Assembly (NCBI GenBank): GCA_964653765.1
Contig: CAZZGQ010000001.1
Location: 5,456-69,455 of the forward strand
Origin: an uncultured Elusimicrobia bacterium
GTDB taxonomy: Bacteria; Elusimicrobiota; Elusimicrobia; UBA1565; UBA9628
Direction: 5' to 3'
Length of the DNA: 64,000 nt
The notes beneath the pieces were generated by a model. It made no database searches and was not told the origin of the DNA. It saw nothing but the letters and a program-made list of their open reading frames with translations. Both the position numbers and the translations under genes were made by a program. Position 1 is the first letter of the stretch. Each line of letters opens with the position of its first letter. Positions 10,158 through 56,699 of this stretch are shown one piece after another.

Positions 10158-10276
10158 AGGGACGCGAACATCGGTACGATCAAGCGTGCCAGGATGGCGG
10201 CCCGACCACCCAGTTCCTCCGGAAAATGATCCGGACCCTTGCCGACAGGAGATTGGACCATTTCAGCATGGAGTCT

Positions 10277-40575: not shown

Positions 40576-40645
40576 ATCGACCAGGGCCCTTCGAGGCGAC
40601 TCGGAGGGCCCGCGCCGGGTCAGGCCCGGAATCAAAACACATGGA
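40565..40645 (+). repeat. ~75-bp structured repeat (copy 2)
   Basis: See 40195-40275. Confidence 0.6.
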
Positions 40646-42170
40646 GAACACGATGACCAACCAAGAAACGAAGCAGGAAGCCGTCGCCGTCAAGGAGGTC
40701 GCGCTCGAAAGCGTGGCCATCGAGAAGATCGAGATCGTCGAGAACGTCCGCAAGCACTTCGACGCCGCCGCCATGAAGGAACTGACCGAGAGCATCCGGC
40801 ACAACGGCATCCTTGTGCCCTTGCTCCTGGCCAAGAACGGCAAGCCCGGCGTCTACCGCCTCATCGCAGGGGAGCGCCGCTTGCGGGCAGCGAAGGCGCT
40901 GGACTTGAAGAGCGTCCCGGCGCAGATCGTGGAGGCCGACGCCGCCAAGCTCGAAGAGTTGCAAGTCCTGGAGAACCTCCACCGGGCCGACCTCGGGCCC
41001 ATCGAGGAGGCGCGCGCCTTCAAGAAGCTCCTCGACGGCGGCAAACACACCATCGAGGGCTTGGCGAAGCAAGTGGACAAGTCGGTCAAGTACGTCACGC
41101 GCTCCATCCGGCTCTTGGAGCTTCCGAAGAAGGCCGTCCTGGCCATCGAGAAGGGCACGATCACGCCCGAGCATGGCCACCAACTCCTGCGCGTCCCGGA
41201 GGATCGGCGCGAGAGCTTGGTCGAGTACGCGCTGACGCCCAAGTGGGGCGGCGTCATGCGCACCATCCACGAGCTGGTCTCCGAGATCGAGAACCGGGTC
41301 GAGAAGGACCTGGCGAAGGCTTGCTTTCCGAAGGACCGGGAGTACGCAGGCCAGACGGCTTGCTTGGCCTGCCCGTTCAACACCGGCAATCAGAACGTCC
41401 TCTTCGAAGGCGCGACGGCGGGCAAATGCACCAACAGCGGGTGCTTCACGAAGAAAACCAACCTCTTCTTGAAGGAGTTCAAGGAGAAAGCGGTCAAGCA
41501 GTTCAACGGCCTCAAGTGCGTCGGCATGGGCTCGGCGGGATGGAACGGCTTGCGCGAGGTCAAAGGAGCCGTCGTGCTGACCGCCGAGGAGGCGAAGAGC
41601 CCGAAGGTCAAGGCGATGATCGACAAGGAGCCCGAAAAGTTCGGCTTCGCCGTGGTCAAGCCGTCGGCCTACAGCGGCGCGAAGGCTCCGAGCGCGGTCC
41701 TGGTCTGCCAGGACAGGGAGCTTCTCGACAAGGAAATCCGCAAGCCCGCCGAGAGCGGCGAGCGACCGCTGACGCAGGAGGATCGGGAGCGCGAGCAGTT
41801 CCTCGAAGAGGCCAAGGTCCGGGCGCTGTTCGCCGAAGGAGCGCGAGTCCTCAAGAGCATCAAGAAAAAGCACCTGATCGGCATCGTCCTGGCTCTGCCC
41901 GGCACGGACGCCGCCTACGAGGCTATCGGCGTGGCGCAAGCGGAGAACCTCCCGGCAGCGCTGGCGAAGCTGTCGGAGAAAGACCTCCTGCGGCTGGCCT
42001 ACCTGTGCGCCATCGACGCCTACAACCTCGACGAGGAGTTCGAGGAGATCGGCGTGAGCGTTCCGAAGGTCCGCAGAGAGGCCCGCAAGGCGGCGCTGGC
42101 CGAGTGGGAGCAGGCCCTCAAGGCCAAGGCCGAGAAGCCCGAGGAGAAGGAGGTAGCCGCGACCAAGTAA
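40641..42170 (+). CDS. ParB/Spo0J-like N-terminal (nuclease/partition) domain protein with long Cys- and Lys-rich C-terminal region
   Basis: ESIRHNGILVPLLL...YRLIAGERRLRAAKAL is a ParB-N motif. 509 aa. Confidence 0.7.
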   Translation: MENTMTNQETKQEAVAVKEVALESVAIEKIEIVENVRKHFDAAAMKELTESIRHNGILVPLLLAKNGKPGVYRLIAGERRLRAAKALDLKSVPAQIVEADAAKLEELQVLENLHRADLGPIEEARAFKKLLDGGKHTIEGLAKQVDKSVKYVTRSIRLLELPKKAVLAIEKGTITPEHGHQLLRVPEDRRESLVEYALTPKWGGVMRTIHELVSEIENRVEKDLAKACFPKDREYAGQTACLACPFNTGNQNVLFEGATAGKCTNSGCFTKKTNLFLKEFKEKAVKQFNGLKCVGMGSAGWNGLREVKGAVVLTAEEAKSPKVKAMIDKEPEKFGFAVVKPSAYSGAKAPSAVLVCQDRELLDKEIRKPAESGERPLTQEDREREQFLEEAKVRALFAEGARVLKSIKKKHLIGIVLALPGTDAAYEAIGVAQAENLPAALAKLSEKDLLRLAYLCAIDAYNLDEEFEEIGVSVPKVRREARKAALAEWEQALKAKAEKPEEKEVAATK

Positions 42171-42227
42171 GAGGCCCGTTGACCTGGCCCATCCGGGCGA
42201 CCGGGTGGGCCAGAGTGAGCGGGTCTA

Positions 42228-42722
42228 CGACGCGGTGATACCGCCGCGCCTATGGACGGCGTGGACGAGCCTTCGGCATCGACGCACTCCGCCCACAGGC
42301 GCTTGAATTGCGGCCTGCGGGGGCGGTGCGTTCCGCCGGCGATCCTCCCTGCGGACGGCGGCAGGGACCCCGCAATTCACCGTACCCACCGCTGGCGGCG
42401 GCGGGTTCTTCTCTACTTCTTTCGCACGGCGTCGTCCTTGCCGACTTCCCGCTCTCGCCTCCTCGGCTTTTCATGTTCCACCCCACCTCAGGCCCCAGGA
42501 GTGAAGTCCACCTCGCTGCGGCTGAAACGGTTACCCCCTCCGACGATCCGAAAATTTGGCCCAACCCCCGCCGTAGCCCCTAATTTCCGGACTGCTCTCT
42601 GCCGCGAGGCCGCCGGCTCGGCTGTGCCGAGGGCGGTCGTCCTGTGGGGCCCCAGCCATTTGATCCTCGCTCGACGGATCTTCCTCGGGCGCCTTCGCCC
42701 TTCGGGTGGGCGGAGGTGGACC
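42228..42722 (+). repeat. ~500-bp conserved structured element, copy C
   Basis: See copy A. Hairpin variant CCGCtgGCGG. Confidence 0.75.
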
Positions 42723-43307
42723 ATGGAAAAGACCTACGGCGGCGCAAAACGGTTCAGCAAGGACGGCAACGGCACGGCGGCCAGGAACGAGACTCTGGAG
42801 AGCTTCATCCGGGATGCGGGCGACAAGGCGTATCGCTTCGCCTACGACCTCTCGGGCAACAGCGACGAGGCGCGGGAGCTTGTGCAAGAGACCTGCTATC
42901 GTCTCGCGCGGAGTTGGAAGAGCTTTCAGCCGTCGAGGCCGGTGAGTTCTTGGTTCTTCACGGTCCTGCGCAACGCCTTCCTTGACTCGCGACGGCGATT
43001 CGAGCGGCGCAAGGTCGTGTCGTTGGACCTGCCTCTGGAGGACGAGGACGGCGCGTCGTTCGAGGGCATTATCCCCGACGGCGCGGAAGGCATCCCGGAG
43101 AGCCTGGAGCGCGTCGAGACGGCCCAGACGGTAAGGCGGGCCATGAGGGGGTTGACGCGAGAGCATCGGGCGGTCTTGGAGCTGTGCGACATGGGCGGCA
43201 TGGCATACGAAGAGGTCGCGCGGAGCCTTGGCGTTTCAGTGGGGACGGTCCGCTCGCGCATCTTCTGGGCGCGGGCGGCTTTGCGCGGACAACTGGCGGC
43301 ATCTTAA
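42723..43307 (+). CDS. ECF-subfamily sigma-70 factor carrying the conserved repeat-associated N-terminal peptide
   Basis: N-terminus MEKTYGGAKRFSKDG. Region 2 (YRFAYDLSGNSDEARELVQET). Region 4 (EHRAVLELCDMGGMAYEEVARSLGVSVGTVRSRIFWARAAL). Confidence 0.75.
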   Translation: MEKTYGGAKRFSKDGNGTAARNETLESFIRDAGDKAYRFAYDLSGNSDEARELVQETCYRLARSWKSFQPSRPVSSWFFTVLRNAFLDSRRRFERRKVVSLDLPLEDEDGASFEGIIPDGAEGIPESLERVETAQTVRRAMRGLTREHRAVLELCDMGGMAYEEVARSLGVSVGTVRSRIFWARAALRGQLAAS

Positions 43308-43322
43308 CGAGGAGACAATCAC

Positions 43323-43493
43323 ATGAACGAGCAAGAGAGGGAACCGACGGGGCTGTGGGAGGACGCGGAGATCATTTCGGTCTACACGCGCGCGCAGGCG
43401 TTGGAGGACGGCGTTCTCGTGGCAAGGCAGGCTGTAAGCAACCGCGCCTACGCTCTTAGGGATGAAGCGCTCGCGGCAAGTGTTCCCGAATAA
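43323..43493 (+). CDS. Small ORF (56 aa) in the anti-sigma position after the ECF sigma gene
   Basis: ATG 15 nt after the sigma gene stop, AGGAGA RBS. Too short for the ORF track. Speculative. Confidence 0.25.
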   Translation: MNEQEREPTGLWEDAEIISVYTRAQALEDGVLVARQAVSNRAYALRDEALAASVPE

Positions 43494-43923
43494 CCCGTTC
43501 CGCTTGCCGATGGCGGTTGAACAACTGCGCGTGCAGCTTCGCGTCGGCGATGACCCTCCGACCGTCCAGGTTGTCGAGAAGATCCGCGAGTTTGACCCGC
43601 ATCGCGGCGACGTTCCCCGATTGGACCAGACGCCTGATATAGCGGCGATACGTGAGCCTGGTAGGCCGGGTGAGCAGGCGGACCGCGATGAGGACCTCCG
43701 CGTGAAACCCCGCCTTCTTGAGATCAGCAAAGCTCGTCGCGGTGTCCTCTACGACGTCGTGCAGGAGCGCAGCATGCTTTTCGATCATCGGCGCCGTACG
43801 CCCGAGGCGCGCCATGACGCGCACGGGATGCCGCCAATAGGGTTTGCCGCCTATGTCCTTCTGTCCCTTGTGGGCGCGTTTGATGAACTCGATCGCTGCC
43901 GAGACCGTTGAGATCTTCGCCAT
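43456..43923 (-). CDS. HD-domain phosphohydrolase (small alarmone (p)ppGpp hydrolase-like)
   Basis: AAIEFIKRAHKGQKDIGGKPYWRHPVRV...HDVVEDT is the RelA/SpoT HD motif. Start at the internal ATG (MAKIST). Confidence 0.7.
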   Translation of the reverse strand: MAKISTVSAAIEFIKRAHKGQKDIGGKPYWRHPVRVMARLGRTAPMIEKHAALLHDVVEDTATSFADLKKAGFHAEVLIAVRLLTRPTRLTYRRYIRRLVQSGNVAAMRVKLADLLDNLDGRRVIADAKLHAQLFNRHRQAERVIREHLPRALHP

Positions 43924-44693
43924 TATTGCGCCGTCAGCCCGCCATCGATGGAGAAGATGCCGCCGGTAACCCAGGATGATTCGTCCGATGCAAGGTAAAC
44001 GGCCAGCGCGGCTATCTCGTCGGGCGTCCCAGGTCGGCCGAGGGGGCACGTCGCGAGCACCGGCGCCGCGCGCTTCCGGTCGTTGAGCAGAGAGGCCGCC
44101 ATCTGTGTATCCACGAGCCCTGGGCACACGGCATTGAAGCGGATGCCCTGCTTAGCATAGTCAACGGCGAGACTCCGAGTCAACGCGTTGAGCGCCCCCT
44201 TCGTCGCGCTGTAGGCGGCGCCTCCCGGCACCGCGACGAGGCCTCCCGAAGATGAGATGTTGATGACCGATCCGCCGCGGCGCTTGAGCATCTCTGGGAC
44301 GGCTGCGCGCGTCACGCGAAAGACTCCGGTGACGTTGACGTCCAGCAGCTCGCGCCAGTCCCGATCTGAGGTCTTATGGAGCGGCGTGTCGAACAGCCCG
44401 CGCGCGGCGTTGTTGACGACGACGTTCAGGCCGCCGAAGGCCCGCCGGGCAGCAGAGACGACCGCCCGGACGTGGTGCTCATCCGTCACGCTGCCGGCGA
44501 CAGCTCGGGCCTTCCCCCCTTCCCGTTTGATCTCCGCGACAACTCGCGCAAGCGGCGCCTTGCGGCGTCCGGTGACTACGACGGCCGCCTCCTCGCGCGC
44601 GAAGGCCCGCGCGATCGCGGCGCCAATGCCCTCTCCCCCGCCCGTGACCCAGGCCACCTTGCCGGCGAGCCGGCCCGAGACCTTCATGCCCAT
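43923..44693 (-). CDS. SDR-family short-chain dehydrogenase/reductase
   Basis: TGGGEGIG Rossmann motif, NNAA, S...YSATK catalytic tetrad. Confidence 0.85.
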   Translation of the reverse strand: MGMKVSGRLAGKVAWVTGGGEGIGAAIARAFAREEAAVVVTGRRKAPLARVVAEIKREGGKARAVAGSVTDEHHVRAVVSAARRAFGGLNVVVNNAARGLFDTPLHKTSDRDWRELLDVNVTGVFRVTRAAVPEMLKRRGGSVINISSSGGLVAVPGGAAYSATKGALNALTRSLAVDYAKQGIRFNAVCPGLVDTQMAASLLNDRKRAAPVLATCPLGRPGTPDEIAALAVYLASDESSWVTGGIFSIDGGLTAQ

Positions 44694-45445
44694 TCCGACC
44701 TCAACGGCCTCACCAGCTCCACGACTTGGCCGACGACCAGATTGGTCGTGTCTGGTAGCAGGATCTGCCCCAGGATCAAAGACGCCGACGCAACGGCGAC
44801 CACGCTGTTGAAGGCCCAGAACGAATCGCCGAGCTTCATGGCGACGATCAGGTGCAGGAAGCTTCCGCTCACGACCAGGGCCGGATAAAGAGGCGTTATC
44901 TTCGGCGGCGTTCCTTCTCTCCTGTAGAGGTCGTAGGTCTTGATGATCTGGGGCACGTTCATCACGATCAGGAGCCCCATCGCCGCCGGGAAGAGAAGGT
45001 AGGCCCACGTCGTCCTCCCAACGAGCAGGCCGCCCAGCGCCAGGATGCCCGACAGGGCGGCGGCCACCGCGCTCAGCGCGCACTTTTTGATGGCGCCCTC
45101 GAGACGCGCGTAGGCGGCGACCTGAGCCAACAGCGCGGCGCTCTCGACCACCCCGGCGACGTTGAGCAGGATGTACCAGCCGCTCGACAGCCTGATCCAG
45201 GAGACCAGGGACAGGAAGAATGCCACGAAGAACCAGATCAGCGTGGTCTCCAGGGAGACGTCCTTGGCTGAGGCCCGCTCCCTGAAGTTCTTGACGAGCT
45301 GCGGGATTCCCAAGACGCTCAGCTCGGCGCTGCCGATGACGGCGGCGATCGTTGGATGCGTGACGGCGACCAGCACCGCGGCGGCCGCCAGGAAGACAAG
45401 GATCGTCAGAGCCGCCGCGCCCGGAATTTCGTTGGAATGTTTCAT
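44684..45445 (-). CDS. 7-TM PQ-loop repeat membrane protein
   Basis: Two PQ motifs (GIPQLVKNF and NVPQIIKTY) in a 253-aa 7-TM protein. Confidence 0.5.
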   Translation of the reverse strand: MKHSNEIPGAAALTILVFLAAAAVLVAVTHPTIAAVIGSAELSVLGIPQLVKNFRERASAKDVSLETTLIWFFVAFFLSLVSWIRLSSGWYILLNVAGVVESAALLAQVAAYARLEGAIKKCALSAVAAALSGILALGGLLVGRTTWAYLLFPAAMGLLIVMNVPQIIKTYDLYRREGTPPKITPLYPALVVSGSFLHLIVAMKLGDSFWAFNSVVAVASASLILGQILLPDTTNLVVGQVVELVRPLRSEWA

Positions 45446-45504: not shown

Positions 45505-46680
45505 TTAGGCTTTCGTGGCGGCTCTCTCGAGGAACCAGCGCAAGGCCAGGTTCTCCAACTCGTCAGGCACGCGGACGATCCCGCTGTTGTGCGTGTTGCG
45601 GCTGTTGTGCAGCCAGCCGAAGCACAGCGTCGAGAGCGCGAAGGTCAGGTCGATGTACTCCGTCGGCCAGCCGCCGCCGAAGGCGATGTTGACCAGCTCC
45701 CCGCTCTTGAGCAGGTGGATCGTCTTGTCCGCCATGTGATACGAGTCGATCCCCGGCCGGGGCTGGGACACGGAGACGGCCGCCTCGCGCAGCTCGGCCA
45801 AGGGCAGCTCGTTGCGGAAGCAGCCGACGTTGGCGAGCGTCGCCCCGTCCTTGAGGTCCTTGAAGGACGCCTTGCCGATGGTGTCGGTCGCTCCGGTGCT
45901 CGTGACGACGAGCTCGCAACTCCGAAGCAGCTCGGGCAGCTCGACGATGTGCATGCCGTCGAAGTGGGCGTAGGTCTTGCGCTTCATGTCGAGCTCCGCC
46001 ACGTAGACGATCGCGCCGAGCTGCCGCGCCAGATTCGCGAAGCCGCGGCCGACGGCGCCGTAGCCGATCACGCCGACGCGCGCGCCGGCGACGCTCTTGT
46101 TCGTCAGCGACATGATGGCTGAGAGGCCCGACTCGCCGGTCCCGCGCGGATTGCCGACCTCGTGCTTGCAGAAAGACCGCGCCATGTCCAGGATCGGCCA
46201 GCTCGAGATCTTGTCCACCTCGTTGATGCCCGAGGTCGTGAACTCGACGCAACCCTTCACGGACGGGAACTTCTCCCGCTGGGCCGCGACCTCCTTGATG
46301 AGGATCGCGCCGTCGTCGAAGACGATGGTCGGCGCGAAGGCCTCCACCTCCGCGAACGTCCCCTTGTCCACGCCGCGCTCGATGTCGAGCGCCGTCGCCA
46401 CGGGGATGCCGAACGAGCGCACGAGCTCGACGGCGTCCTGGTGGGTGGACTCGGCGTTCGAGGGCACGAACAGGACTTCGACGCCGTGCTCCTTGAGAAT
46501 GTTGGCCCAGACGGCGGCCTTGACCTCCAGATGGGTGCCCAGCACGACCTTCTTTGCTCCCGGCGCGCGCTCGGCCAGCCATTTGGCCGCGCGCTCGCAC
46601 AGCGGCAGCTCGACGGGCGAAGCCTTGGCGCCTCCGTTTTCCCCCGCTGCCGTGCGACTTTTCAGAACCTGACTCGTCAT
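45505..46680 (-). CDS. Adenosylhomocysteinase (AHCY)-family NAD-dependent hydrolase-like protein
   Basis: THLEVKAAVWANILKEHGVEV...EFTTSGINEV...GVIGYGAVGRGFANLARQLGAIVYVAELD is collinear with SAH hydrolase substrate and NAD domains. Confidence 0.7.
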   Translation of the reverse strand: MTSQVLKSRTAAGENGGAKASPVELPLCERAAKWLAERAPGAKKVVLGTHLEVKAAVWANILKEHGVEVLFVPSNAESTHQDAVELVRSFGIPVATALDIERGVDKGTFAEVEAFAPTIVFDDGAILIKEVAAQREKFPSVKGCVEFTTSGINEVDKISSWPILDMARSFCKHEVGNPRGTGESGLSAIMSLTNKSVAGARVGVIGYGAVGRGFANLARQLGAIVYVAELDMKRKTYAHFDGMHIVELPELLRSCELVVTSTGATDTIGKASFKDLKDGATLANVGCFRNELPLAELREAAVSVSQPRPGIDSYHMADKTIHLLKSGELVNIAFGGGWPTEYIDLTFALSTLCFGWLHNSRNTHNSGIVRVPDELENLALRWFLERAATKA

Positions 46681-47090
46681 GTATCCGCTCCTCCTGAATT
46701 CTCAGCGATTGTCCGTCTCGCTTTCCGGGAGCAATTTTCGTGCCGGCCTCCTTACGCGGTCTATTCGCGCGGGAAACGCCGGCGTCTTCTCGTTCGAGAG
46801 CATTTTCCTCTCACCCGAGCAGGGCGTGCTGCCCGGCGAGGCGTTCTCGACCGGGTGTATAGGTGTATAGAGGATACCGGCGGCCGGGCGCGGGCGCGCC
46901 AAAGCCGCCGCGCCGCTGGCACGAGAATTGCTCCCGCGGCTACAATCGCGAGGACTCTGCCGCTGCAAGACGCGAGCCAGGAGAGCATGATGGGAACGTG
47001 CGCGTTCTCGGAGAAAGAGGCCGTGGGCGTTGCGGGATGGAGGAGATGTATTTCACTTCGCAAAGTATGCTTTTCAAACGAGCAGACATT

Positions 47091-48464
47091 ATGCTAGGCT
47101 CTACCCCTATGGCGAAGCTCTCGATCCTCGTGGTGGAAGACGATCCTCTCGCGCGCAAGGTCATGCAGTCCCACCTCGGAGGCCACTCCGTCGAGTTCGC
47201 CCCGGACAAACGGAGCGCCCTCGAGGCTCTGGCGGCGCGCAACCACGACCTCTGCTTCATCGACCTCAACCTCGGCAAGAACGACGACTGCTCGGGCCTG
47301 GAGCTGATTCCGGTGGCGGCCTCGAAGGGCATCTACTCCGTCGTCATGTCGGGACACGACTCGGAGACCTACATCGACAAGGCCTATCAGCTCGGCTGCG
47401 ACGACTTCTACGCCAAGGGCAACGAGGCGGACAACATCGGCAGCGTCCTGGATCGTTTCCAGCAGAAGCGCGACAAGCTGGAGACGGGCCGGCTCTTCGC
47501 CGAGGAGTTCGTCACCCAGGACGCGGTCACGCGCGCGGCGGTTCTGGAGGCGCTCAAATACGCGGGCGCGGACTTGCCGATCCTGCTGCTGGGCCCCTCC
47601 GGGACCGGCAAGACGAGCCTGGCGAGGATCATCCACGAGCGCTCCGGCCGCCAAGGCCAGTTCGTGGCCATCAACTGCGCGGCCCAAAGCGAGGACCTGC
47701 TCGAAGCCGAGCTGTTCGGCTGCCGCAAAGGGGCCTTCACCGGCGCCCATAGCGACCGCAAAGGCAAGCTCTTGCTGGCCGATAAGGGAACGCTGTTCCT
47801 GGACGAAGTCGGCTCGATGAGCCTCAAGATGCAGTCGAAGCTCCTTAAGGCCATCGAGGAGAGGTCCTTTTTCCCCCTCGGGTCGGAAAAGCCCGAGACG
47901 TCCGGCTTCCGCATCGTCACGGCGACGCTGGAGGACGTGCAGGGCCTGATCAAGGCCGGCAAGATGCGCTTCGACTTCTTCCAGCGCATCCATGGCCTCG
48001 CCGTCACGCTCAGGTCTCTCGCGCAGCGAAAGGACGACCTCTTTCTGCTCATCGCCTTCTTCACGCGCGGGAGCAAGCGCCTGTCCTTCACGCCCGAGGC
48101 CAAGGAGGCGATCCTGGGTCACGATTGGCCGGGCAACACGCGGGAGCTCCGCCGCTTCGTGGATCTCCTCGTCGCCGGCAACGAGGGCAGGGTGTCGGCC
48201 GAGAAGGTGGCCGGCCTGCTCAAGTCGATGCGCGTCGAGGAAGGAGCCGGGAGCTTCGTCACTGACGAGCAGTTCCGCTTCGCGCTCAGCCAAGGGCTTG
48301 ACGACGCCGTCGAGCGCTTCGTCGACACCATCGTCAAGCGGGCCCTGGCCAAAAACGACGGCCACAAGACCAAGACCCTGTCCGATCTTCGGATATCGAC
48401 CCGGCTCCTGTATACGTCGCTCAAGCGCTTCCGCGAGGACGCCAAGCCGGAGGCGGCGGCATGA
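47091..48464 (+). CDS. Sigma-54-dependent response regulator (receiver + AAA+ sigma54-interaction + C-terminal HTH)
   Basis: Receiver domain with FIDLNL. Walker A GPSGTGKT. GAFTGA motif. R-finger region. Confidence 0.85.
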   Translation: MLGSTPMAKLSILVVEDDPLARKVMQSHLGGHSVEFAPDKRSALEALAARNHDLCFIDLNLGKNDDCSGLELIPVAASKGIYSVVMSGHDSETYIDKAYQLGCDDFYAKGNEADNIGSVLDRFQQKRDKLETGRLFAEEFVTQDAVTRAAVLEALKYAGADLPILLLGPSGTGKTSLARIIHERSGRQGQFVAINCAAQSEDLLEAELFGCRKGAFTGAHSDRKGKLLLADKGTLFLDEVGSMSLKMQSKLLKAIEERSFFPLGSEKPETSGFRIVTATLEDVQGLIKAGKMRFDFFQRIHGLAVTLRSLAQRKDDLFLLIAFFTRGSKRLSFTPEAKEAILGHDWPGNTRELRRFVDLLVAGNEGRVSAEKVAGLLKSMRVEEGAGSFVTDEQFRFALSQGLDDAVERFVDTIVKRALAKNDGHKTKTLSDLRISTRLLYTSLKRFREDAKPEAAA

Positions 48465-48658
48465 CGGAGGCCGGCAAGGAATTGCAGTCGCTGATCCACG
48501 ACATGAACTCGAAGTGCGGCAGCCTCAAGAGCGCCATCACGCTGCTGCGAACGGCTTCGCCTGAAGAGAGGCGCGAGCTGCTCGGCCTCATGAAGCAGCA
48601 GGCGCGCGGCATCGCCCAGGACATCGCGGCGTTCGAGGCCTTCGGGGAGACCCGGTGA
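48461..48658 (+). CDS. Small hypothetical protein between the sigma54 activator and the RpoN-like gene
   Basis: 65 aa. ATGA overlap with the upstream stop, and overlapped by the downstream start. Confidence 0.3.
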   Translation: MTEAGKELQSLIHDMNSKCGSLKSAITLLRTASPEERRELLGLMKQQARGIAQDIAAFEAFGETR

Positions 48659-49728
48659 ACCTCGCCGCCATCGCCTCGGCGCGCTCCTCGGTGCACGGGC
48701 AGCTCAAGCTCGCGAGCCTCTTCGAGATGCCCGAGCGCGAGTTCGAGACCCGCGTCCGGGCGATCGAGGAGCAAGAGCTCTTCCGGCGCCTCGTCGACCT
48801 CGGAGTGGTCTCTCGCAAGCCCTATGAGAACGCGTGCTTCGCCGCGCGCCGGGCGGCCGGGCGGGAGCTGTGCGCGGGCGGCCACGGCCTTCCCGGCGTT
48901 CTCGACGGCAACGGCGAGCTGGTCGCTCTGATCTCCAGGATCGGCCAAGAGCGTTTCGAGGAGTTCTTCCTCGGCGAGATTCCCCTCTCCGACGAGGCGC
49001 GCGCCGAGAGCTGCGGACTGTCTCTTTCCGAGACGCGGCGGCTGCGAGAATTCGTCGACCGGCTCTACGTCCAGGCCGAGTTCGAGAACCCCTCCACCGA
49101 GGCCGCGCCCGCGAAGACCTTCAGCGCCGTCGCCGGCATCGAGCTGGAGGGCGGCAAGCCCATCCTCGCCTTCTTCAACCGGGAGATATGGAAGGGGCGC
49201 TACCTCATCGATGAAGCTAAGAGCGCCGCGGCCCTCGACTCTCTCGGCCGCAGGCAAGCGGCCCGGGCCGAGCGCCTCCTGGCCGAGCTGGAGTTCCTCG
49301 AACGGCGCAAATCCACCCTGTATCGCGTCCTCGAAACCTTGATCGAGGTCCAAGCCGACTTTCTGACGAGCGGCCAGGCCGGCCGCCGCCGGCCGCTGAC
49401 TCAGCGGGCCGTGGCGGCGCGACTCGACGTCCTGCCGAGCGTCCTCAATCGGCTCATCTCGAACAAGTCGGTGCGCTTGCCCTGGGGGCTTGAAGCCCCG
49501 CTCAAGGTCTTCGTGCCCAGCGGCAAGCTCATCGCGCGAGACCGCCTCTACGAGCTGGCCGTGTCCTCTCCCGGCTTGTCGGACGAGGGGCTGCGGGGCG
49601 AGCTGCGGCGGGTGCACGGATTCTCTCTCTCGCGCCGGTCGATCACTCAGTACCGCAAGGAGCTGGGCCTCGAAACGCGCGGGCTCCGTCCGGGCGCGCC
49701 CATCTACGCCGTAGGAGCCGCCGCGTGA
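48655..49728 (+). CDS. RNA polymerase sigma-54 (RpoN)-like factor, short form (357 aa)
   Basis: C-terminal HTH and RpoN box: [26 protein letters not shown] resembles [40 protein letters not shown] resembles ARRTVAKYRE. Leu-rich region-I-like N-terminus. Confidence 0.6.
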   Translation: [357 protein letters not shown]

Positions 49729-50651
49729 GGCTCAGCTCCGGCTCCGCCGCCGCGCTCGCCGCCGCCGTGGCAGCCAACGTTCTCTGGGGGTCGACGTTCA
49801 TGGCCTCGAAGGTCGTGCTGCGCGAGTGCCCGGCGTCGATGGCCATCTTCATCCGGTTCGCGATCGCCCTGCTCGCGTTCGGCGTCGTCGCCTCGCTCAA
49901 GCCGGCGTCACGCCAGTGGGACGTGGCTCGCGCCAGGGCGCTCGAGCTGTTCGCCCTGGGCGCCGTCGGCTATACCGCCCTCTACCTCCTCCAGATGATC
50001 GGGCTCGAGAAGATCGCCTCGAGCCAGAGCGCGGCGATCATGCTGCTGGCTCCGGTCTTCACGTTGCTCTTGGAGTCGACGCAGCGCAAGAGCATGCGAT
50101 CGCGCGAGGTGGCCGCGACGGCCTTCGGCCTTGCCGGCGCCGCGGCCATCCTGCTCGACCGGCACGGCATCGACATGACCGGCCTGACGCTCCGGGGGCT
50201 TTGGATGACCGTGGCCGCCGCCGGCTGCCTCGGGGTGTCCGTCGTGCAGACGCGGCGGCTGCTCGCCGCCGATGAGAGCGGCCCCGGGTTCACCGTCTTT
50301 AACCTGACCCTCTATTCGATGGCGATCGGCGTCTGCGGCCTCTTGCCCTTCATCGCCTGGCGGGGCACGGACGGCTTCGACGTCGGGCGGCTGAGCGTGC
50401 AGTTCTGGCTGTGGTCGACCTATTTGGGAATGCTCTGCTCCGTCGCCGCCTTCTTGATGTGGAACTGGGCGATCAAGCACGTCTCCCCCGCCGCCGTTGC
50501 CGTCGCGATGTACCTCAAGACCCCCGTCGCGCTGGGCTTGGGCGCGGCGCTGCTCGGCGAGCGGCTGACGCCGGCCTTCTACGGAGGAACGACGCTGATC
50601 CTCGGATCGCTGTTCGTCAATCAGCTCGCGCAGGCGAGGGCGGCGCGATGA
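49725..50651 (+). CDS. DMT-superfamily EamA-like transporter
   Basis: 10 TM, two EamA repeats. Confidence 0.8.
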   Translation: MRLSSGSAAALAAAVAANVLWGSTFMASKVVLRECPASMAIFIRFAIALLAFGVVASLKPASRQWDVARARALELFALGAVGYTALYLLQMIGLEKIASSQSAAIMLLAPVFTLLLESTQRKSMRSREVAATAFGLAGAAAILLDRHGIDMTGLTLRGLWMTVAAAGCLGVSVVQTRRLLAADESGPGFTVFNLTLYSMAIGVCGLLPFIAWRGTDGFDVGRLSVQFWLWSTYLGMLCSVAAFLMWNWAIKHVSPAAVAVAMYLKTPVALGLGAALLGERLTPAFYGGTTLILGSLFVNQLAQARAAR

Positions 50652-51052
50652 TGGGAGCCGCGCTCGCCGCGCTGCTCGTCACCGGCCGGCCGGCGGCCTG
50701 CGTCGAGCTCGCCGGACCGCCGCGACCACCTGCAACGATCGGCCGCTTCTTCGCTGCCGCGAGGCTCGAGCCGACACCGATCTCGGCCGCGCTTGAGCGC
50801 GCCGTCGACAGCGCCGGCCGCGGCGCGGCGGAGGGCTCGGTCGCGCCGGCCAAGGTGGAGGCGCCGCGCGCGCCTTTCGTGGCGGCGGGGCCGATCCTAA
50901 GCGAACCGGCGCGCGCTGGGCTCGAGACCCGGATGACAACGCTGGCTGCTGCCCTGCGCCCGCCTTCCGAACCGGCTTACGAGCTCGTTGTCTCCGCGGC
51001 CCCGCCGGCCGATCCCGCTGGGCCCGCGCCGGAGCGCCCGGCCCTCCACGCT

Positions 51053-51673
51053 ATGAGCAACACCTATACCATGCGAACCGACGTCCGACTGTCTAGCGGA
51101 GCGCGGTTCACGGTGCGTCCCGCCGAGGCCTCCGACGTCTCGCCGGTGACCGCGCTGATCCATCACGCCTTCGAGGTCTGGAAGCGCGCCGGCCTGAGCC
51201 TTGGTCCGATGCGTCAGACCGACGCCGAGACCGCCCGCCATCTCCTCGGCAAGGGCTACGTCGTCGAGGACGAGCACGGGCGGCTCGCGGCCACCTTCAG
51301 CCTCGACGAGGGCGCGATCGCGCCCGCCGGGGCCGGGGCCGTCGACTTTTACGAAGGCGCAGACGCCGCCGTGCGTTTCGCGGCCGAGCCGGGCGCGCCC
51401 ACCGCTCCCGCCGGCCGTCTGCTCGTCTTCAAGAAGTTCGCCGTCCGGCCCGATCTGGCCCACACGGGGCTGGGCTCGCGCCTCTACGCGTTGGCGGAGC
51501 AATTCGGACGGGAAGCCTACCGAGGCATGGCTCTGGAGACGGTCAAAGAGGCGCGGTGGCTCTATGATTGGTATCGCCGCCTCGGCTATCAGACGCTCGG
51601 CGCGCATCGCTACGACGGGTCGGCGCTGGACACGGTCCTGATGGCCAAGCCGCTCGCGCAAAAGACGCCATGA
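51053..51673 (+). CDS. GNAT-family N-acetyltransferase (ORF is open from 50648, giving a possible 135-aa Ala/Pro-rich N-terminal extension)
   Basis: Acetyl-CoA binding motif LLVFKKFAVRPDLAHTGLGSRLY. Confidence 0.55.
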   Translation: MSNTYTMRTDVRLSSGARFTVRPAEASDVSPVTALIHHAFEVWKRAGLSLGPMRQTDAETARHLLGKGYVVEDEHGRLAATFSLDEGAIAPAGAGAVDFYEGADAAVRFAAEPGAPTAPAGRLLVFKKFAVRPDLAHTGLGSRLYALAEQFGREAYRGMALETVKEARWLYDWYRRLGYQTLGAHRYDGSALDTVLMAKPLAQKTP

Positions 51674-52296
51674 CCATGAGCCCCACCTTCGCTCCGGACC
51701 TGATCGTCGAGGCCACCAACGCCTGCGACAAGAACTGCCTCGGCTGCTACGCGCCCAACGTCCTGGTCGGCGAATCGGCCCGGCCGGCGCGGGGCGTCGA
51801 TCACCTCTCCGTCGAGGCGCTCGAGGGCGCCTGGCCGTCGGGCGAGCTCGTCGAGACCGTGGCCGTGCGCGGCGGCGAGCCGACGCTCAACCCAGCCTTC
51901 GCCGAGCTGCTCGCGGCGCTCTCTCGGCGAGCGCGGACCGTCTATGTCGAGACGCACGGCGGCTGGATCGCCTCCGGCCATCCCCTCCTGGCGGCCCTGC
52001 GCGCCTGCGGCGGCGTGGCCAAGGTCAGCCTCGACCGCATGCACGGCACGAACGCTGATTCCGCCAGGGCCATGCTCGCCGCTCTGGCCGACTCCGGCGT
52101 GAAGACCGTCGTCGCCGTCACGGCGCCGACCCTCGAGGCGTTCGAGTCCGCGCGCGAGCGTCTGCTCGAGGGTTTCGATGGCGAGGTCGTCTGGCAGAAG
52201 ACCGCGCTGTCCGCGGAAGAGCTCGTCTCGCCGCGCATAGGCGTGATCTCGGCCAAGGGCGCGCTGACGCGCGCCCTAACCCACCGCCTCGAATGA
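51670..52296 (+). CDS. Small radical-SAM-like protein (CxxxCxxC)
   Basis: VEATNACDKNCLGCYAP, 208 aa (QueE/activase-sized). Function unassigned. Confidence 0.45.
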   Translation: MTMSPTFAPDLIVEATNACDKNCLGCYAPNVLVGESARPARGVDHLSVEALEGAWPSGELVETVAVRGGEPTLNPAFAELLAALSRRARTVYVETHGGWIASGHPLLAALRACGGVAKVSLDRMHGTNADSARAMLAALADSGVKTVVAVTAPTLEAFESARERLLEGFDGEVVWQKTALSAEELVSPRIGVISAKGALTRALTHRLE

Positions 52297-53423
52297 TCGC
52301 CTGGGTCGTACTTTCGCTGCTGCTGCCGGCGCGCGCTCGCGCCCTTGAGAAGGTCACCGTCGGCATCGCCGCCAACTTCAGCGCGATGAGCGACAGCTCC
52401 TCGAACCCGTACGCGGACTACTTCCGCGACGCCATCGGCATGGCGTTCTCAGAGAGCCAGGCCGCCCTGTCGGCCAAGGGCGTGCGCGTCGAGCTCAAGG
52501 AGCTTGACTACGGCAATGACAAGCTCAAGGTGATCGAGACCGCCCGCGCGGCGGCCGCCTCGGACGCCGTCGCTGTCATCGGCTACATCTATTCCTCGGA
52601 CGCTCTCCTGGCGGGGCCCGTGTTCTCGCAGGCGCACCTGCTGCTCGTCACGCCAACGGCGACGGCCGAGCGCGTCGAGAAGCTCGGCCGCTACGTGCGG
52701 CGCACCTGCTTCGACGACGCCTACCAAGGAAGGATTCTCGCCGACTACGCCCACAACCGCGAGATCAGGACGGCCGGCATCGTCTATGCCGCCGACTGCG
52801 CCTACTGCAACAGCCTGCGCGCGGCGTTCAAGAAGCGCTTCGAGGCGCTTGGCGGCCGCGTGCTGGTCGAGCAAGCCGTGCTCTCGAGCGACGACCCCTA
52901 CGACTCGGCGGTTTCCGTTTTCAAGAATAATCCCGTTCAGGCGATTTTCGTGCCCAACTACGAACGCGTCTCGGCGACGATCATCTCAAGGCTCATCGAC
53001 GCTGGCATCCGACCGAAACTATGGCTGGGCGGCGACGGCTGGGGCGACTCGATAGACCTGTTCAGCCGCATCATCGGCGAGCGCCCCTTCAAGGGCTACG
53101 CCATCGCCCACTGGTACCGTGATGCAACCCCGCAGTCGAAAGACTTCGTCGAGAAGTTCACTCGCCTTTACGGCAAGCCGCCCGTCGACACGGCGGTCCT
53201 CGCCTACGACGCCGCGAAGCTCGTCATTCGCGGCCTGCTGGAGGCCAAGCGGCTCGACCGCGAGGGAGTGCTCGAGGCCGTCGAGAGCATCAAGACATTC
53301 GACGGGGTCACGGGGCGTCTCATCTATCCGGCCGGGGAACGTACGCCGATCAAGCCGGCCGTGCTCATGCGCGTCGAGACCGGCCGGGGCAACGCCGTGG
53401 AACGCCTCATTGGAGAACAGTGA
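52293..53423 (+). CDS. Periplasmic substrate-binding protein (LivK-like, Peripla_BP_6)
   Basis: Signal peptide. Branched-chain amino acid SBP-like fold signatures. Confidence 0.65.
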   Translation: MIAWVVLSLLLPARARALEKVTVGIAANFSAMSDSSSNPYADYFRDAIGMAFSESQAALSAKGVRVELKELDYGNDKLKVIETARAAAASDAVAVIGYIYSSDALLAGPVFSQAHLLLVTPTATAERVEKLGRYVRRTCFDDAYQGRILADYAHNREIRTAGIVYAADCAYCNSLRAAFKKRFEALGGRVLVEQAVLSSDDPYDSAVSVFKNNPVQAIFVPNYERVSATIISRLIDAGIRPKLWLGGDGWGDSIDLFSRIIGERPFKGYAIAHWYRDATPQSKDFVEKFTRLYGKPPVDTAVLAYDAAKLVIRGLLEAKRLDREGVLEAVESIKTFDGVTGRLIYPAGERTPIKPAVLMRVETGRGNAVERLIGEQ

Positions 53424-55504
53424 AGCGGGACTCACTTAAGGCGGTCATCCTGAAGTTTGGCGTCGTCGCCTTCCTGGCGATCTGCGCCTACGTCCTAGGC
53501 ACGTATTCCGTCATCCACTATCTCGACCAGAGGCAGGCTGTCGACCTCGAAGCGGCGGAGTTGACCGCGTCGGCGCCGAAACAGGCCGAGCAGATCGTTC
53601 CCGGCCTGCTTGTCCCGGAGGAATACGGCTCGATCTCCTTGCAGCTCGACAAGCTGCGGAAAAGCGAGGGGTTGGTCAGCGCGACCTTCGTGCGGGCCAG
53701 CGAGGCCGGGGCCTCGCAGTTCTTGAAATGTCCGCGCAATGAGCAGGGAAAGACCTACGTCTGCGCCCATTACCTGCGCAGCCAGGTCATCACGGCCAGC
53801 GACGTCGGTCTGCCGGGCTCTTTGATGGGCTACTTGGTCAAGCACAAGAGCCTGGCGAACAAGCGGCGCGACGATCCGCTCAAGCTGGCCTTGGCCGCGC
53901 TCTTCGCCGGCATCGCCCTTGGCTTCCTCGGCCTCATCGTCTCCATTCTCGTCTTCGTCGAGCGGCACGTGCGCCAGCCGCTGCTCAATCTCAACCAGAG
54001 CCTCGTTCCCGTGCTCGACGGCCGGGCGGGCGAGCAGCCTCCCAATTTCGAGCTGCTTGAGCTACGCTCGCTCGCGAGCCAGGTCGAGCAGCTCGTGCGG
54101 CGCTACGAGGAGAAGAAGGCCTCCGCCGCGACGGGAGAGCTCGCGGCCCAGGTCGCCCACGATATCCGCTCCCCGCTGGCGGCGCTGGACTCCATAGTGA
54201 GCGATATCTCGCATCTACCCGAAGAGAAGCGCCTGCTCGTGCGCAGCGCCGTCGGGCGCATCCGCGATATCGCCAACGACCTCATGAGGCTGCGCCGCGC
54301 CTCGGCCGACGCGGCCGGAGAGCCGCCCTCGGCGCGGATGCTCTTCAGCCTCGTCGACTCGCTCTTGACGGAAAAGCGGCTGCAGTTCCGCGCCAGACTC
54401 GGCATCAAGATCGAAGGTAGGTTCGAGTCCGCCTACGGCCTGTTCGCCGAAGTCCAGTCGATCGACTTCAAGCGCGCGTTGTCGAATCTCGTCGACAACA
54501 GCGTCGAGGCCCTCGGTGATAAGGGGAACGTGACTATTTCCATGGCCAGCCGAGAAGGCCAAGCCTTGATCACGGTCCGGGACGACGGGAAGGGAATCCC
54601 GCCCGAGGTCCTCTCCCGGCTCGGCGAGAGGGGCGTCACGCACGACAAGCCCGGCGGCTCGGGGCTCGGGCTCTACCACGCGCGTACGAGCGTGGAATCA
54701 TGGCGCGGACGGCTCGAGATCGACTCGGCGCCGGGACAAGGCACTACGGTCAGCATCTATCTGCCCAAGGTCCCCCCGCCCGACTGGTTCGTATCGAAGC
54801 TCATTTTGCCGTCGGCCGGCGCCGTAGTCATCCTGGACGACGACACCAGCATCCATCAGGTCTGGCAAGGTCGTCTGACGGCGGCGGCCAAGGACCGGGG
54901 TCTCGAAATAGTCGATGTTTCCACTCCCCAGGAGCTCCGGGGGTGGGTGGCGGAGAATTCTACGAAGGCCGCCCGGGCGCTCTATCTGCTCGATTACGAG
55001 CTCGTCGGCTACCAGGAGACCGGCCTGAGCCTCGCCGCGGAGCTTGCCATCGCCCGCAGGACGGTCTTGGTGACCAGCCGCTACGACGATCCCGGAATTC
55101 TAGCGGAATGTCGGCGACTCGAAGCCCGGATGATTCCGAAGTCGCTTGCCGGCCTGGTCCCCATCGAAGCGCCGTCGGGCAAGACGCGCTGGGACGCCGT
55201 GCTCATAGACGACGATCCCCTCGCGCAAGCGACTTGGCGGATGACAGCGTCGAAGCTGGGCAAGAGCTTCCGCGCCTTTTCCACAGCGGCGGAATTCCTG
55301 GCCGCCGTGGAAGAGATCGATCGAGGCACGCCGGTCTACGTGGACGCCGAGCTCGCCGGCGGCGTGAAGGGCTCGCTGGAATCCCGGCGCATCCGGGACA
55401 AGGGTTTCGCCGAAGTCTACCTCGCCACCGGCCACGATCCCGCGGCCTTCGCCGATCTGGAGTACCTGAGCGGCGTCGTCGGGAAGGAACCCCCATGGTC
55501 CTAG
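53420..55504 (+). CDS. Sensor histidine kinase with N-terminal TM/sensor region and C-terminal receiver-like domains (hybrid)
   Basis: H-box AHDIRSPLAAL. HATPase N-box LVDNSVEAL, G-boxes DDGKGIP and GGSGLGL. Confidence 0.8.
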   Translation: MKRDSLKAVILKFGVVAFLAICAYVLGTYSVIHYLDQRQAVDLEAAELTASAPKQAEQIVPGLLVPEEYGSISLQLDKLRKSEGLVSATFVRASEAGASQFLKCPRNEQGKTYVCAHYLRSQVITASDVGLPGSLMGYLVKHKSLANKRRDDPLKLALAALFAGIALGFLGLIVSILVFVERHVRQPLLNLNQSLVPVLDGRAGEQPPNFELLELRSLASQVEQLVRRYEEKKASAATGELAAQVAHDIRSPLAALDSIVSDISHLPEEKRLLVRSAVGRIRDIANDLMRLRRASADAAGEPPSARMLFSLVDSLLTEKRLQFRARLGIKIEGRFESAYGLFAEVQSIDFKRALSNLVDNSVEALGDKGNVTISMASREGQALITVRDDGKGIPPEVLSRLGERGVTHDKPGGSGLGLYHARTSVESWRGRLEIDSAPGQGTTVSIYLPKVPPPDWFVSKLILPSAGAVVILDDDTSIHQVWQGRLTAAAKDRGLEIVDVSTPQELRGWVAENSTKAARALYLLDYELVGYQETGLSLAAELAIARRTVLVTSRYDDPGILAECRRLEARMIPKSLAGLVPIEAPSGKTRWDAVLIDDDPLAQATWRMTASKLGKSFRAFSTAAEFLAAVEEIDRGTPVYVDAELAGGVKGSLESRRIRDKGFAEVYLATGHDPAAFADLEYLSGVVGKEPPWS

Positions 55505-55519
55505 GCTCTGGATGGAGCT

Positions 55520-56422
55520 ATGACCACCTTCCGGTACTCTAACCGCCACGGGCTCTACCTTCCCCAGCAAGAGGATCTCTCCGCCCGTAAGGTGCCGAAA
55601 GCGTCGCTTGGCGACGCCGCAAAGGCCATCAAGAAGTTCTTCGCCGACCACGGGCAGGCCCTAAATCCGCAGAGCGGCCTAGGAAAGATCGTGCAGGCGG
55701 CCGAAAAGGCCGCACGGCTGAAACCGGATGACATCGTTTTCCCGCGCGATGCTTTCGACTCGCAGCTCGTACTTGAGATTCAGCCGGCACTCGCCGTCTT
55801 GGAGGGCCATCCGAAGGTATCCGACTACCTGGCCAAACTGGTTACGGGCTGCTTCAGCACTTACGACAAGGGGCGGAGCATCGCCAAGGATACCTATTGG
55901 GAGATCGATGTCTGTCACAAGCTGCGGAAGGCCGGATTGTCGGTGAAGTTGGATGATCCCGACGTCATATGGACCGATCAGGAGGAGCCGGTCCCGATCG
56001 AATGCAAGAAGATCTACTCCCATGCCCGCCTTGAGAAAGCTCTCTCCAAGGGCGTGTCCCAGGTGGCCAAGCGAGCCGGGGTCGGCTTCGTCGCCGTGAA
56101 CATCGACGAGCTGGTCCCGGGCACGCTTCAGGTGAAGTCTTGGCAGGCGACGGACATCCAGCCTCAGAAGCTACTCTCCGACTTCTACGCCCGGCACGAC
56201 CGGCATTTCCGAAAGTATCTTCGGCAGGGCCGCCTATCCGGCACGGTCGTCGCCTGCTTCGTTCGCGTCGAGATCATCCAATCGAACGGCCGATTGGGAC
56301 GGTTCTATACCCAGCAGTGGCAGTATTTCACCAATCCCGAGTTGCCGGCGCAGCATAGCCGGCGCGCAACACTTCTGCGCGAGGCGATTGGACGCCTGAC
56401 GGCGCCGGACGAGAGGGCGTAA
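55520..56422 (+). CDS. Hypothetical protein with possible PD-(D/E)xK nuclease-like motif
   Basis: YWEIDVCHKL ... VPIECKKIY has D...E-x-K spacing. Weak. Confidence 0.3.
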   Translation: MTTFRYSNRHGLYLPQQEDLSARKVPKASLGDAAKAIKKFFADHGQALNPQSGLGKIVQAAEKAARLKPDDIVFPRDAFDSQLVLEIQPALAVLEGHPKVSDYLAKLVTGCFSTYDKGRSIAKDTYWEIDVCHKLRKAGLSVKLDDPDVIWTDQEEPVPIECKKIYSHARLEKALSKGVSQVAKRAGVGFVAVNIDELVPGTLQVKSWQATDIQPQKLLSDFYARHDRHFRKYLRQGRLSGTVVACFVRVEIIQSNGRLGRFYTQQWQYFTNPELPAQHSRRATLLREAIGRLTAPDERA

Positions 56423-56699
56423 CAGCCCATCACCAAAGCATTTTCAATCGGCTGCTCTCCTGAAAATACTCCAAGTCCTCCCTGCCCGTACACGACGATA
56501 ATTCGACGGCCCGGTGTTGGCACCGAAATTGCTCCCGGAATCCGGACGGCCGCGGAGGACCGTCCGCCGTGTAGCCCCGCGAATACGGCGCGGGGGCATC
56601 CACGACCTGGCCGCAACCGGGTGAGACCACGGGAAACGATGAGACATCGTCTCTCGTTCTGCGCCACGGTGGCGGGAGACGGGAGGCAGGAGAGACCGT

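Follow-up and report, generated by a model that had tools for sequence, protein, structure and literature searches.

We analyzed a window of 64,000 nucleotides (nt) from an uncultured Elusimicrobia bacterium (GenBank assembly GCA_964653765.1, contig CAZZGQ010000001.1, positions 5,456 to 69,455 of the forward strand) and found a gene for a short sigma-54-like protein of 357 aa, here named sRpoN. We consider it probable, at about 0.7, that sRpoN is a working minimal sigma-54-type sigma factor in a self-contained, self-activating two-component/activator circuit. The gene lies in a nine-gene operon (47109-56422) that begins with an activator carrying a receiver and an AAA+ domain, continues with a 65-aa open reading frame (ORF) that we named orf65, and ends with a gene for a 300-aa protein (Table 1). 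All ORFs named in a preliminary description of this DNA, made from its letters, were found where it had placed them, and the peptides it quoted are present in the translations. The overlap coupling of the activator, the 65-aa ORF and sRpoN that it described was also borne out, with 4-nt overlaps at 48461-48464 and 48655-48658, as was the divergent adenosylhomocysteinase-like (AHCY-like) gene.

The C-terminal half of sRpoN is a normal sigma-54 DNA-binding module, composed of the extra-long helix and helix-turn-helix (ELH-HTH) and the RpoN box. Residues 213-339 match Sigma54_DBD (PF04552) at 57.3 bits against a cut-off of 22.8, the sole Pfam match of the protein. Compared by hhalign with a profile of canonical fragments, residues 211-350 aligned with a probability of 99.5% (E 5e-23) and the alignment ended there; this profile is partial, the Aquifex aeolicus C-terminal fragment used as a seed having retrieved short fragments only. 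In a profile search, the A. aeolicus and Escherichia coli sigma-54 structures aligned to residues 205-347 (A. aeolicus RpoN, E 1.7e-15), and the RpoN box SRRSITQYR, whose counterpart in E. coli is A454-R462 (ARRTVAKYR), retains both Arg, the Tyr and the last Arg. The full-length AlphaFold model (mean predicted local distance difference test score, pLDDT, 75) places a long helix, an HTH and a three-helix RpoN domain in this half. All 20 Foldseek matches in the PDB at E ≤ 0.001 were sigma-54 chains in RNA polymerase (RNAP) complexes, with low global TM-scores and with no residue map in the result. The RpoN-type HTH and RpoN box noticed in the preliminary description are thus confirmed by Pfam and by the profile alignments.

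To compare related loci, we scanned one genome per GTDB species, which gave 79 loci in about 71 Elusimicrobiota metagenome-assembled genomes (MAGs); with one contig fetched earlier, the set comprised 80 loci (L numbers below), and all their six-frame ORFs were compared with the window proteins. YGGCAY-N5-TTGCW occurs three times in the window, where 0.18 would be expected, and 0 of 100 shuffles reached three. All three are intergenic, correctly oriented and within 8 kb of the sRpoN gene, with none in the other ~50 kb, and all are kept in L006, from the closest relative. The case that no sigma-54-type promoters are associated with the gene, which the preliminary description had allowed for, therefore does not hold. 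Its candidate promoter upstream of the AHCY-like gene is present; the one it offered for the drug/metabolite transporter (DMT, EamA) gene is not, because that gene lies inside the operon. On the strand of promoter 2, no sigma-70-type consensus was seen.

The same pattern is enriched across the 1.28 Mb of related loci and the window. TGGCAY-N5-TTGCW was observed 62 times against 1.4 expected from shuffling, TGGCAY-N5-TTGAW 22 times against 0.8, and CGGCAY-N5-TTGCW 20 times against 2.4. The N5 spacing is strict: TGGCAY-N4-TTGCW occurred 0 times and TGGCAY-N6-TTGCW once, where about 2 were expected for each. Within 1 kb upstream of sRpoN there are 0.44 promoters per kb, versus ~0.04 per kb at a distance of 8-10 kb, the latter being roughly ten times the shuffled expectation. 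At loci where the activator and sRpoN are divergent, a TGGCAT(A/T)AAAATTGCTCT promoter stands upstream of sRpoN in 34 of 34 cases, and dyads (TTCTC-N4-GAGAA, TTTTC-N4-GAAAA) lie beside the activator start, with a TATAAT-like box just downstream. Between the divergent promoters of the window we noted a tentative dyad, TCTCG-TT-CGAGA, as a candidate activator-binding site; its core CTCG-NN-CGAG is kept in L006, and the inverted-repeat tool gave no report of it.

A variant -12 element, TTGAT in place of TTGCT, is enriched in some subfamilies (L008 8292; L010 5760/5902/9583; L012 8363/11448; L017 4128/8019/8353; L057 4409/6561/8147). Owing to phylogenetic confounding, no sRpoN residues could be assigned as tracking TTGC versus TTGA.

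The -24 element varies together with the RpoN box, whose two arginines correspond in the alignment to E. coli R455 and R456. At loci with both arginines (RR; 61 loci, 992 kb), [T/C]GGCAY was found 109 times, and C[A/T]GCAY and TGCCAY once each. Where the first Arg is replaced by L, S or A (8 loci, 144 kb), these counts are 0, 13 and 0; where the second is replaced by Q (RQ; 5 loci, 62 kb), they are 4, 0 and 9, the four GG-type sites being coding-sequence coincidences inside sRpoN genes. The sRpoN of L081 is RR and 83% identical to the RQ protein of L039; the orthologous promoter of L081 is TTTTGGCATAAAAATTGCTC, with TGGCAT as the -24 element, versus ATCTGCCATAAAAATTGCTC in the RQ loci. In a 2025 study, E. 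coli sigma-54 substituted at R456 no longer used the GG promoter and worked on GA, GC or GT promoters instead (PMC12096077). The natural Q at the R456 position, which goes with GC, touches the same base as engineered R456, and changes at the R455 position touch the neighbouring G. Since the box substitutions track the -24 bases, sRpoN proteins most likely read these promoters themselves, and the variant ones would be out of reach for a canonical RR sigma-54. The window sRpoN is itself RR, with canonical promoters.

sRpoN belongs to an undescribed family of ~350-aa proteins that is specific to Elusimicrobiota and related candidate phyla. A database search returned at least 120 homologues of 322-384 aa, 52-80% identical over 90-100% of sRpoN, and all named homologues among those listed came from Elusimicrobiota MAGs. 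In an exhaustive profile search, at least 272 clusters at 50% identity were obtained (E ≤ 1e-30); among the 150 clusters listed, nearly all are 330-395 aa long and match end to end, and the remoter ones belong to Aerophobota and further uncultured lineages. The locations of distant members resemble those of rpoN genes: one is flanked by fliA and fliN/O/P within a flagellar cluster, and the Aerophobus copy lies among housekeeping genes on a 1.38-Mb chromosome. Two listed proteins, P0122 (914 aa) and P0123 (839 aa), contain a complete N-terminal sRpoN followed by ~500 further residues, probably a fusion or read-through with a downstream histidine kinase.

Being shorter than canonical sigma-54 and under the NCBIfam equivalog cut-off, the ORF might be taken for a truncated rpoN pseudogene or an annotation artefact, and the preliminary description had considered a pseudogene fragment. 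This is ruled out by conservation and has next to no chance of being right, given hundreds of full-length homologues of the same length, an identical 357-aa protein on six independent contigs, invariant residues along the entire sequence and translational coupling within the operon.

The module is conserved as well. Of the 80 loci, 62 have an orthologous activator adjoining sRpoN, 57 have an orf65 homologue, always directly after the activator, and 41 have a histidine kinase nearby. We found two arrangements: activator, orf65 and sRpoN in one direction, as in the window, or activator and then orf65 transcribed divergently from sRpoN. Some loci have extra activators (L029, L065), and at L013, L039 and L051 sRpoN has no adjacent activator. 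An all-against-all clustering of the neighbouring ORFs was dominated by spurious antisense ORFs in the high-GC DNA and was dropped. By Pfam, the activator carries Response_reg (50 bits) and Sigma54_activat (178 bits), with GAFTGA and Walker A motifs; GAFTGA is retained in 62 of 64 orthologous activators. Its C-terminal Fis-like HTH is degenerate, with LxENGGKKTKTLxDLKISTRLLY conserved and no Pfam score. The pairwise identity matrices of sRpoN and the activator correlate at r=0.96, which fits inheritance as a unit but would also be given by shared phylogeny alone. The earlier proposal of a dedicated activator therefore stands, since the activator and the 65-aa ORF recur at 57-62 of the 80 related loci.

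In the alignment of orf65 members, His13 is invariant within LIHDxNSKCxSLKSAA, accompanied by D14, and by S17 in most members (HDxNSKC). Nine of 22 members match HisKA (PF00512), the best at E 4e-4 and all below the gathering score, and a PDB sequence search gave no match to kinases. At L009 (8589-9962), an activator without the C-terminal Fis-like DNA-binding domain is fused in frame to an orf65-like dimerization and histidine phosphotransfer (DHp) hairpin. Because of the invariant histidine, the HisKA matches, the position after the activator and this fusion, orf65 looks like a stand-alone HisKA/DHp-like hairpin that would work on the activator's receiver. The anti-sigma or chaperone role suggested for it previously is not supported, as it tracks the activator and not the sigma gene.

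Eight MAGs contain two or three sRpoN copies. Copies within one MAG typically share 48-70% identity, but for most of them an orthologue in another MAG is closer (80-94%), which identifies them as old paralogs and not as variants of a strain. At 88-92% identity, two pairs (MGUL, DMES) could instead stem from recent duplication or represent strain variants. Three MAGs mix RpoN-box dialects: GFS_5282 (RR+RR+LR), H52-bin097_1 (RR+LR) and SO_2016_GW1_47 (RQ+RR). In the closest relative of the window, both modules (L006 and L014, 57% identical) are of the RR type. The term paralog used in the preliminary description is thus justified for divergent copies of the short family in single MAGs, and paralogy to canonical rpoN would be hypothetical. 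Its idea of an insulated circuit holds up in that the system is largely self-contained, with promoter density peaking at the module and covariation of box and -24 element between paralogous modules.

The suggestion that the module may be borne on a mobile element was rejected. Plasmid and phage collections contained no member of the sRpoN family; they yielded canonical rpoN genes only, matching residues 219-345 at ~30% identity, and the family is lineage-wide and syntenic. At L086 (14256-21020), conjugative-transfer genes (TraG/VirD4-like, TrbC, SSB) lie 3-10 kb downstream of the sRpoN module; such genes were not seen in the window.

Besides sRpoN, the genes behind the promoters include small Cys-/Gly-rich peptides followed by ~450-aa radical S-adenosylmethionine (radical-SAM) genes, and also secreted proteins and transporters. 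The promoter-driven gene content looks like loci for ribosomally synthesized and post-translationally modified peptides (RiPPs) with a binding-protein/kinase sensor, and such RiPP-like loci appear to be a main target class of the family. A promoter followed by Cys-rich 30-76-aa peptides and/or a ~450-aa radical-SAM gene was seen at L044 2579, L053 11218, L056 16395, L065 1690, L069 3380, L070 2374, L073 11219, L076 1891 and L081 2977. At L042, L054, L061, L070, L073 and L078, Gly/aromatic-rich ORFs of 31-33 aa (e.g. MGFFNIQYLWVFSYFGGVFGGGGFGGLPGRFNV) lie between the promoter and the sRpoN start. By eye, we also saw tandem 17-aa ORFs (MKLKKLDVVPLDIIKNI, MKLIKTQTAALDIIKGV) directly downstream of variant CAGCAT/CTGCAT promoters at L031, L034 and L021, ~200-400 nt upstream of the activator gene and on the opposite strand.

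Promoter 3 is followed by an RNA element. The leader of its transcript contains a purine-class riboswitch aptamer starting 31 nt after the promoter (Table 1), and RF03165 was also found at L006 16786-16856 and L014 5627-5698, with 69-76 bits over the three. This pair of promoter and riboswitch lies past the kinase end of the module in all three cases, and the 127-aa protein gene follows the riboswitch in the window and L006. This suggests joint control by the activator and a nucleoside-like ligand.

Taking these elements together, we propose the following circuit. The periplasmic binding protein and the membrane histidine kinase would sense a signal, upon which the receiver of the adjacent GAFTGA activator would become phosphorylated; this order of the phosphorelay is our inference. 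orf65 may serve that receiver through phosphotransfer, phosphatase activity or docking. The activated AAA+ ring would then remodel closed complexes of RNAP and sRpoN at the three local promoters, so that the AHCY-like gene, the module's own operon (a positive feedback) and the riboswitch-gated gene cluster would be switched on. Both the binding of sRpoN to core RNAP and its dependence on the activator are presumed in this scheme.

Several results weigh against sRpoN acting as a sigma factor, and most of them concern its N-terminal half. In 38 members, no match to PF00309 (region I) or PF04963 (core-binding domain) was found even at E ≤ 10, and neither Pfam nor NCBIfam revealed a core-binding domain in sRpoN. 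TIGR02395 scored 59.2 bits against a cut-off of 277, matching only residues 200-340 with the last third of the model. The hhalign comparison of the N-terminus with E. coli sigma-54 and a region I profile was co-linear and non-significant; the best and sole local match joined family positions ~8-47 (KLARLLEMPExDFExRVRELExNPLFxRL) to E. coli 13-51 (P 0.03-0.26), and the resemblance stayed non-significant with a region I profile of 120 gammaproteobacterial fragments. Modelled alone, residues 1-205 reached a pLDDT of 58, and Foldseek found nothing significant and no sigma-54 fold, giving weak, non-significant winged-helix-like matches only. Core RNAP binding is therefore unproven. Beyond the N-terminus, the covariation rests on about three clades with few independent events, so that the box classes are not independent trials. 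Copies coexisting in one MAG could in principle be binning errors; countering this, the RR+LR combination recurs in two independent MAGs.

On the other side, the N-terminal 200 aa are conserved as strongly as the DNA-binding domain, with K18, E27, E38, F43, G69, G97, F101, F105, L106, S157, A160, F173, F174, W179 and Y183 invariant. The full-length model predicts three short helices (13-48), a hairpin, a four-helix unit (88-143) and a three-stranded sheet (157-185) here. By eye, the N-terminal LL-x16-(N/D)PLF resembles LL-x17-NPLL, and a region-I-like N-terminus is plausible but unproven. The protein is indeed ~120 aa shorter than E. coli sigma-54 (477 aa), as the preliminary description had it, and the alignment of regions I-III that it proposed has a mixed outcome: the DNA-binding domain is kept, the core-binding domain was not found, and the region I match is non-significant. 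Against the profile of canonical fragments, which includes the end of the core-binding domain, the alignment stops at residue 211. From its sequence, the shortening does not look like a simple deletion, as the N-terminal 200 aa as a whole are unrecognisable as region I or core-binding domain. As a part of the whole interpretation of sRpoN as a sigma factor, this half is probably a strongly conserved, family-specific replacement for both. In sum, sRpoN has the DNA-binding domain, the promoters and the activator of sigma-54, and lacks a recognisable core-binding domain and an equivalog-level score.

We considered whether sRpoN might not be a sigma factor at all, but a regulator occupying -24/-12 promoters, in the role of a repressor, a competitor or an adaptor, for a canonical sigma-54 whose gene lies elsewhere in the genome. 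The missing core-binding domain and region I, the weak, non-significant winged-helix-like matches of the N-terminus and the location of the sRpoN gene behind a sigma-54-type promoter, as a feedback regulator would have it, all speak for this. However, altered boxes go with correspondingly altered -24 elements (C[A/T]GCAT, TGCCAT), and since a canonical RR sigma-54 should read such variants poorly (PMC12096077), they would have no other reader. Moreover, the cultivated Elusimicrobium minutum has neither sigma-54 nor its activators (PMC3162934), whereas lineages with GAFTGA activators have sRpoN adjacent, and a mere DNA-occupying role sits poorly with an N-terminus as conserved as the DNA-binding domain. 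We regard this explanation as unlikely. A tblastn search with E. coli sigma-54 found no canonical rpoN in the fetched loci and the window, which cover less than 1% of each genome and are silent on its absence. Because E. minutum lacks both sigma-54 and activators, a 2025 survey leaves the phylum out and distant members occupy rpoN-like positions, the economical inference is that sRpoN is the lineage's own sigma-54.

Another possibility is that sRpoN serves the entire genome as the lineage's general sigma-54 and has a diverged N-terminus; the adjacent activator would then be one of many, and the circuit would not be insulated. The promoter background persisting at 8-10 kb, the loci with extra activators or with no adjacent one, and the housekeeping surroundings of the Aerophobus copy would agree with such a factor. 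What it explains badly is that two or three divergent copies are present in single MAGs, all of them paired with an activator and an orf65 of their own, in some cases with differing dialects of box and -24 element, and that the three promoters of the window all cluster around the gene. We therefore consider a general factor rather improbable. With slightly better than even confidence, we favour the broader view that sRpoN represents a minimal sigma-54 lineage of Elusimicrobiota and allied candidate phyla in which the activator-interacting and core-binding parts were rebuilt until no longer recognisable, and which radiated into several self-activating paralogous modules of sigma, activator and DHp mini-protein per genome, some of them made naturally orthogonal by the joint change of box and -24 element.

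Table 1. Features of the sRpoN locus and adjoining genes in the window
Feature	Position	Strand	Remarks
Weak HD gene	43456-43824		Pfam/NCBIfam; adjoining
SDR gene	43923-44690		Pfam/NCBIfam; adjoining
PQ-loop gene	44684-45445		Pfam/NCBIfam; adjoining
AHCY-family (adenosylhomocysteinase-like) gene, 391 aa	45505-46680	-	divergent, behind sigma-54-type promoter
Promoter 1, CGGCACGAAAATTGCT	46745-46730	-	~50 nt before the AHCY-like ATG; kept in L006 as CGGCATTAAAATTGCT
Candidate activator-binding dyad TCTCG-TT-CGAGA (tentative)	46788-46799		between the divergent promoters; by eye
Activator (receiver + AAA+), longest ORF	46863-48464	+	
Promoter 2, TGGCACGAGAATTGCT	46917-46932	+	perfect consensus; for the activator-orf65-sRpoN operon; kept in L006 as TGGCACGGAAATTGCT
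Activator, probable real start 47109, MAKLSILVVEDDP	47109-48464	+	start called in identical public contigs
orf65, 65 aa	48461-48658	+	
sRpoN, 357 aa	48655-49728	+	N-terminal family-specific region (1-205) + sigma-54 DNA-binding domain
EamA/DMT transporter	49725-50651	+	same operon, 4-nt overlap
341-aa protein	50648-51673	+	weak C-terminal GNAT fold; same operon
Small radical-SAM protein, 208 aa	51670-52296	+	same operon
Periplasmic binding protein (Peripla_BP_6)	52293-53423	+	probable sensor partner of the kinase
Membrane histidine kinase	53420-55504	+	HisKA-like H-box, HATPase_c, weak C-terminal receiver-like region
300-aa protein	55520-56422	+	no family assigned; last operon gene
Promoter 3, TGGCACCGAAATTGCT	56518-56533	+	after the operon; same place in L006 (16732); in L014 (5598) as CGGCACAGAAATTGCT
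Purine-class (2dG-II model) riboswitch aptamer	56564-56635	+	leader of promoter-3 transcript; Rfam RF03165, 74.4 bits, E 2.6e-17
127-aa conserved protein	56700-57083	+	no family assigned; behind promoter 3 and riboswitch

The AHCY-like protein matches AdoHcyase_NAD at 96.7 bits (Pfam), with a weak substrate domain, and falls under every NCBIfam equivalog cut-off (245.9 vs 275; 201 vs 498). It is family-related and probably has a substrate different from that of adenosylhomocysteinase. The SDR, PQ-loop and HD neighbours listed in the preliminary description were recovered, the HD match being weak. Directly upstream of them (40641-43307, + strand) lie a ParB-like protein (509 aa; ParB_N, HTH_ParB) and then a sigma-70 factor of the extracytoplasmic function (ECF) type. 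The first 36 kb of the window contains many efflux and metal genes (resistance-nodulation-division (RND) pumps, HlyD, OEP, a P-type ATPase with YHS/HMBD, MerR), including a single 1514-aa ORF (12110-16654, + strand) that joins an RND pump (ACR_tran) with an outer-membrane factor (OEP) region. An nhaA-I RNA motif (Rfam RF03057) was found at 10192-10238 on the - strand, with 42.8 bits against a gathering score of 37.

To our knowledge, sigma-54 is regarded as a single, highly uniform protein with a fixed three-domain architecture, a near-invariant RpoN box and an invariant GG/GC code. In a 2025 survey, which defines it by three Pfam domains, this phylum is not included and an architecture with the DNA-binding domain only is not listed (PMC12316311); surveys of this kind would therefore miss the sRpoN family. 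If sRpoN is a functional sigma factor, no smaller sigma-54 scaffold would be known, and core binding and coupling to the activator would be solved here in a different way. Its modules would offer synthetic biology ready-made orthogonal parts (sigma, activator, promoter), and much of the peptide/radical-SAM secondary metabolism of uncultured Elusimicrobiota would be under enhancer-dependent control.

sRpoN has in common with canonical sigma-54 (TIGR02395; activator-interacting, core-binding and DNA-binding domains) a homologous ELH-HTH and RpoN-box domain, the -24/-12 consensus TGGCAC-N5-TTGC and the partnership with a GAFTGA AAA+ activator. It is, however, 100-120 aa shorter than the E. coli protein and ~40 aa shorter than that of A. 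aeolicus (398 aa), has no region I or core-binding domain detectable by hidden Markov model or profile-profile comparison, and its gene is itself behind a sigma-54-type promoter and hard-wired to one activator. Rhodobacter sphaeroides has specialised RpoN1-4 that are activator- and promoter-specific. Bradyrhizobium has rpoN1 and rpoN2 (cited in PMC3162934). Like sRpoN, these paralogs provide several sigma-54-type factors per genome, tied to activators and gene sets, but they are full-length canonical proteins with standard RpoN boxes, whereas sRpoN is short, has its activator adjacent, and in some modules has a changed box and -24 element. ECF sigma/anti-sigma modules are similar by analogy only: many autoregulated paralogous modules occur per genome, each with its own regulator and promoter dialect, but ECF factors are sigma-70 group 4 proteins controlled by sequestration, in contrast to the ATP-driven activator of the sRpoN modules. 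The closest parallel to the re-coded promoters is found in engineered E. coli sigma-54, where R456H/Y/L combined with re-coded -24 elements form mutually orthogonal pairs (PMC12096077, NAR 2025). In both cases, an RpoN-box Arg substitution shifts the preference at one G of the -24 GG. The engineered variants are laboratory mutants of canonical sigma-54, whereas the sRpoN equivalents (R455 position L/S/A with (A/T)G; R456 position Q with GC) are natural, are found in a short, divergent family and seem to occur side by side within one genome. If true, these would be insulated, re-coded sigma-54/promoter pairs made by nature, which that study (PMC12096077) treated as absent there, and thus a natural counterpart of the engineered orthogonal sigma-54 and a counter-example to evolutionarily frozen promoter recognition.

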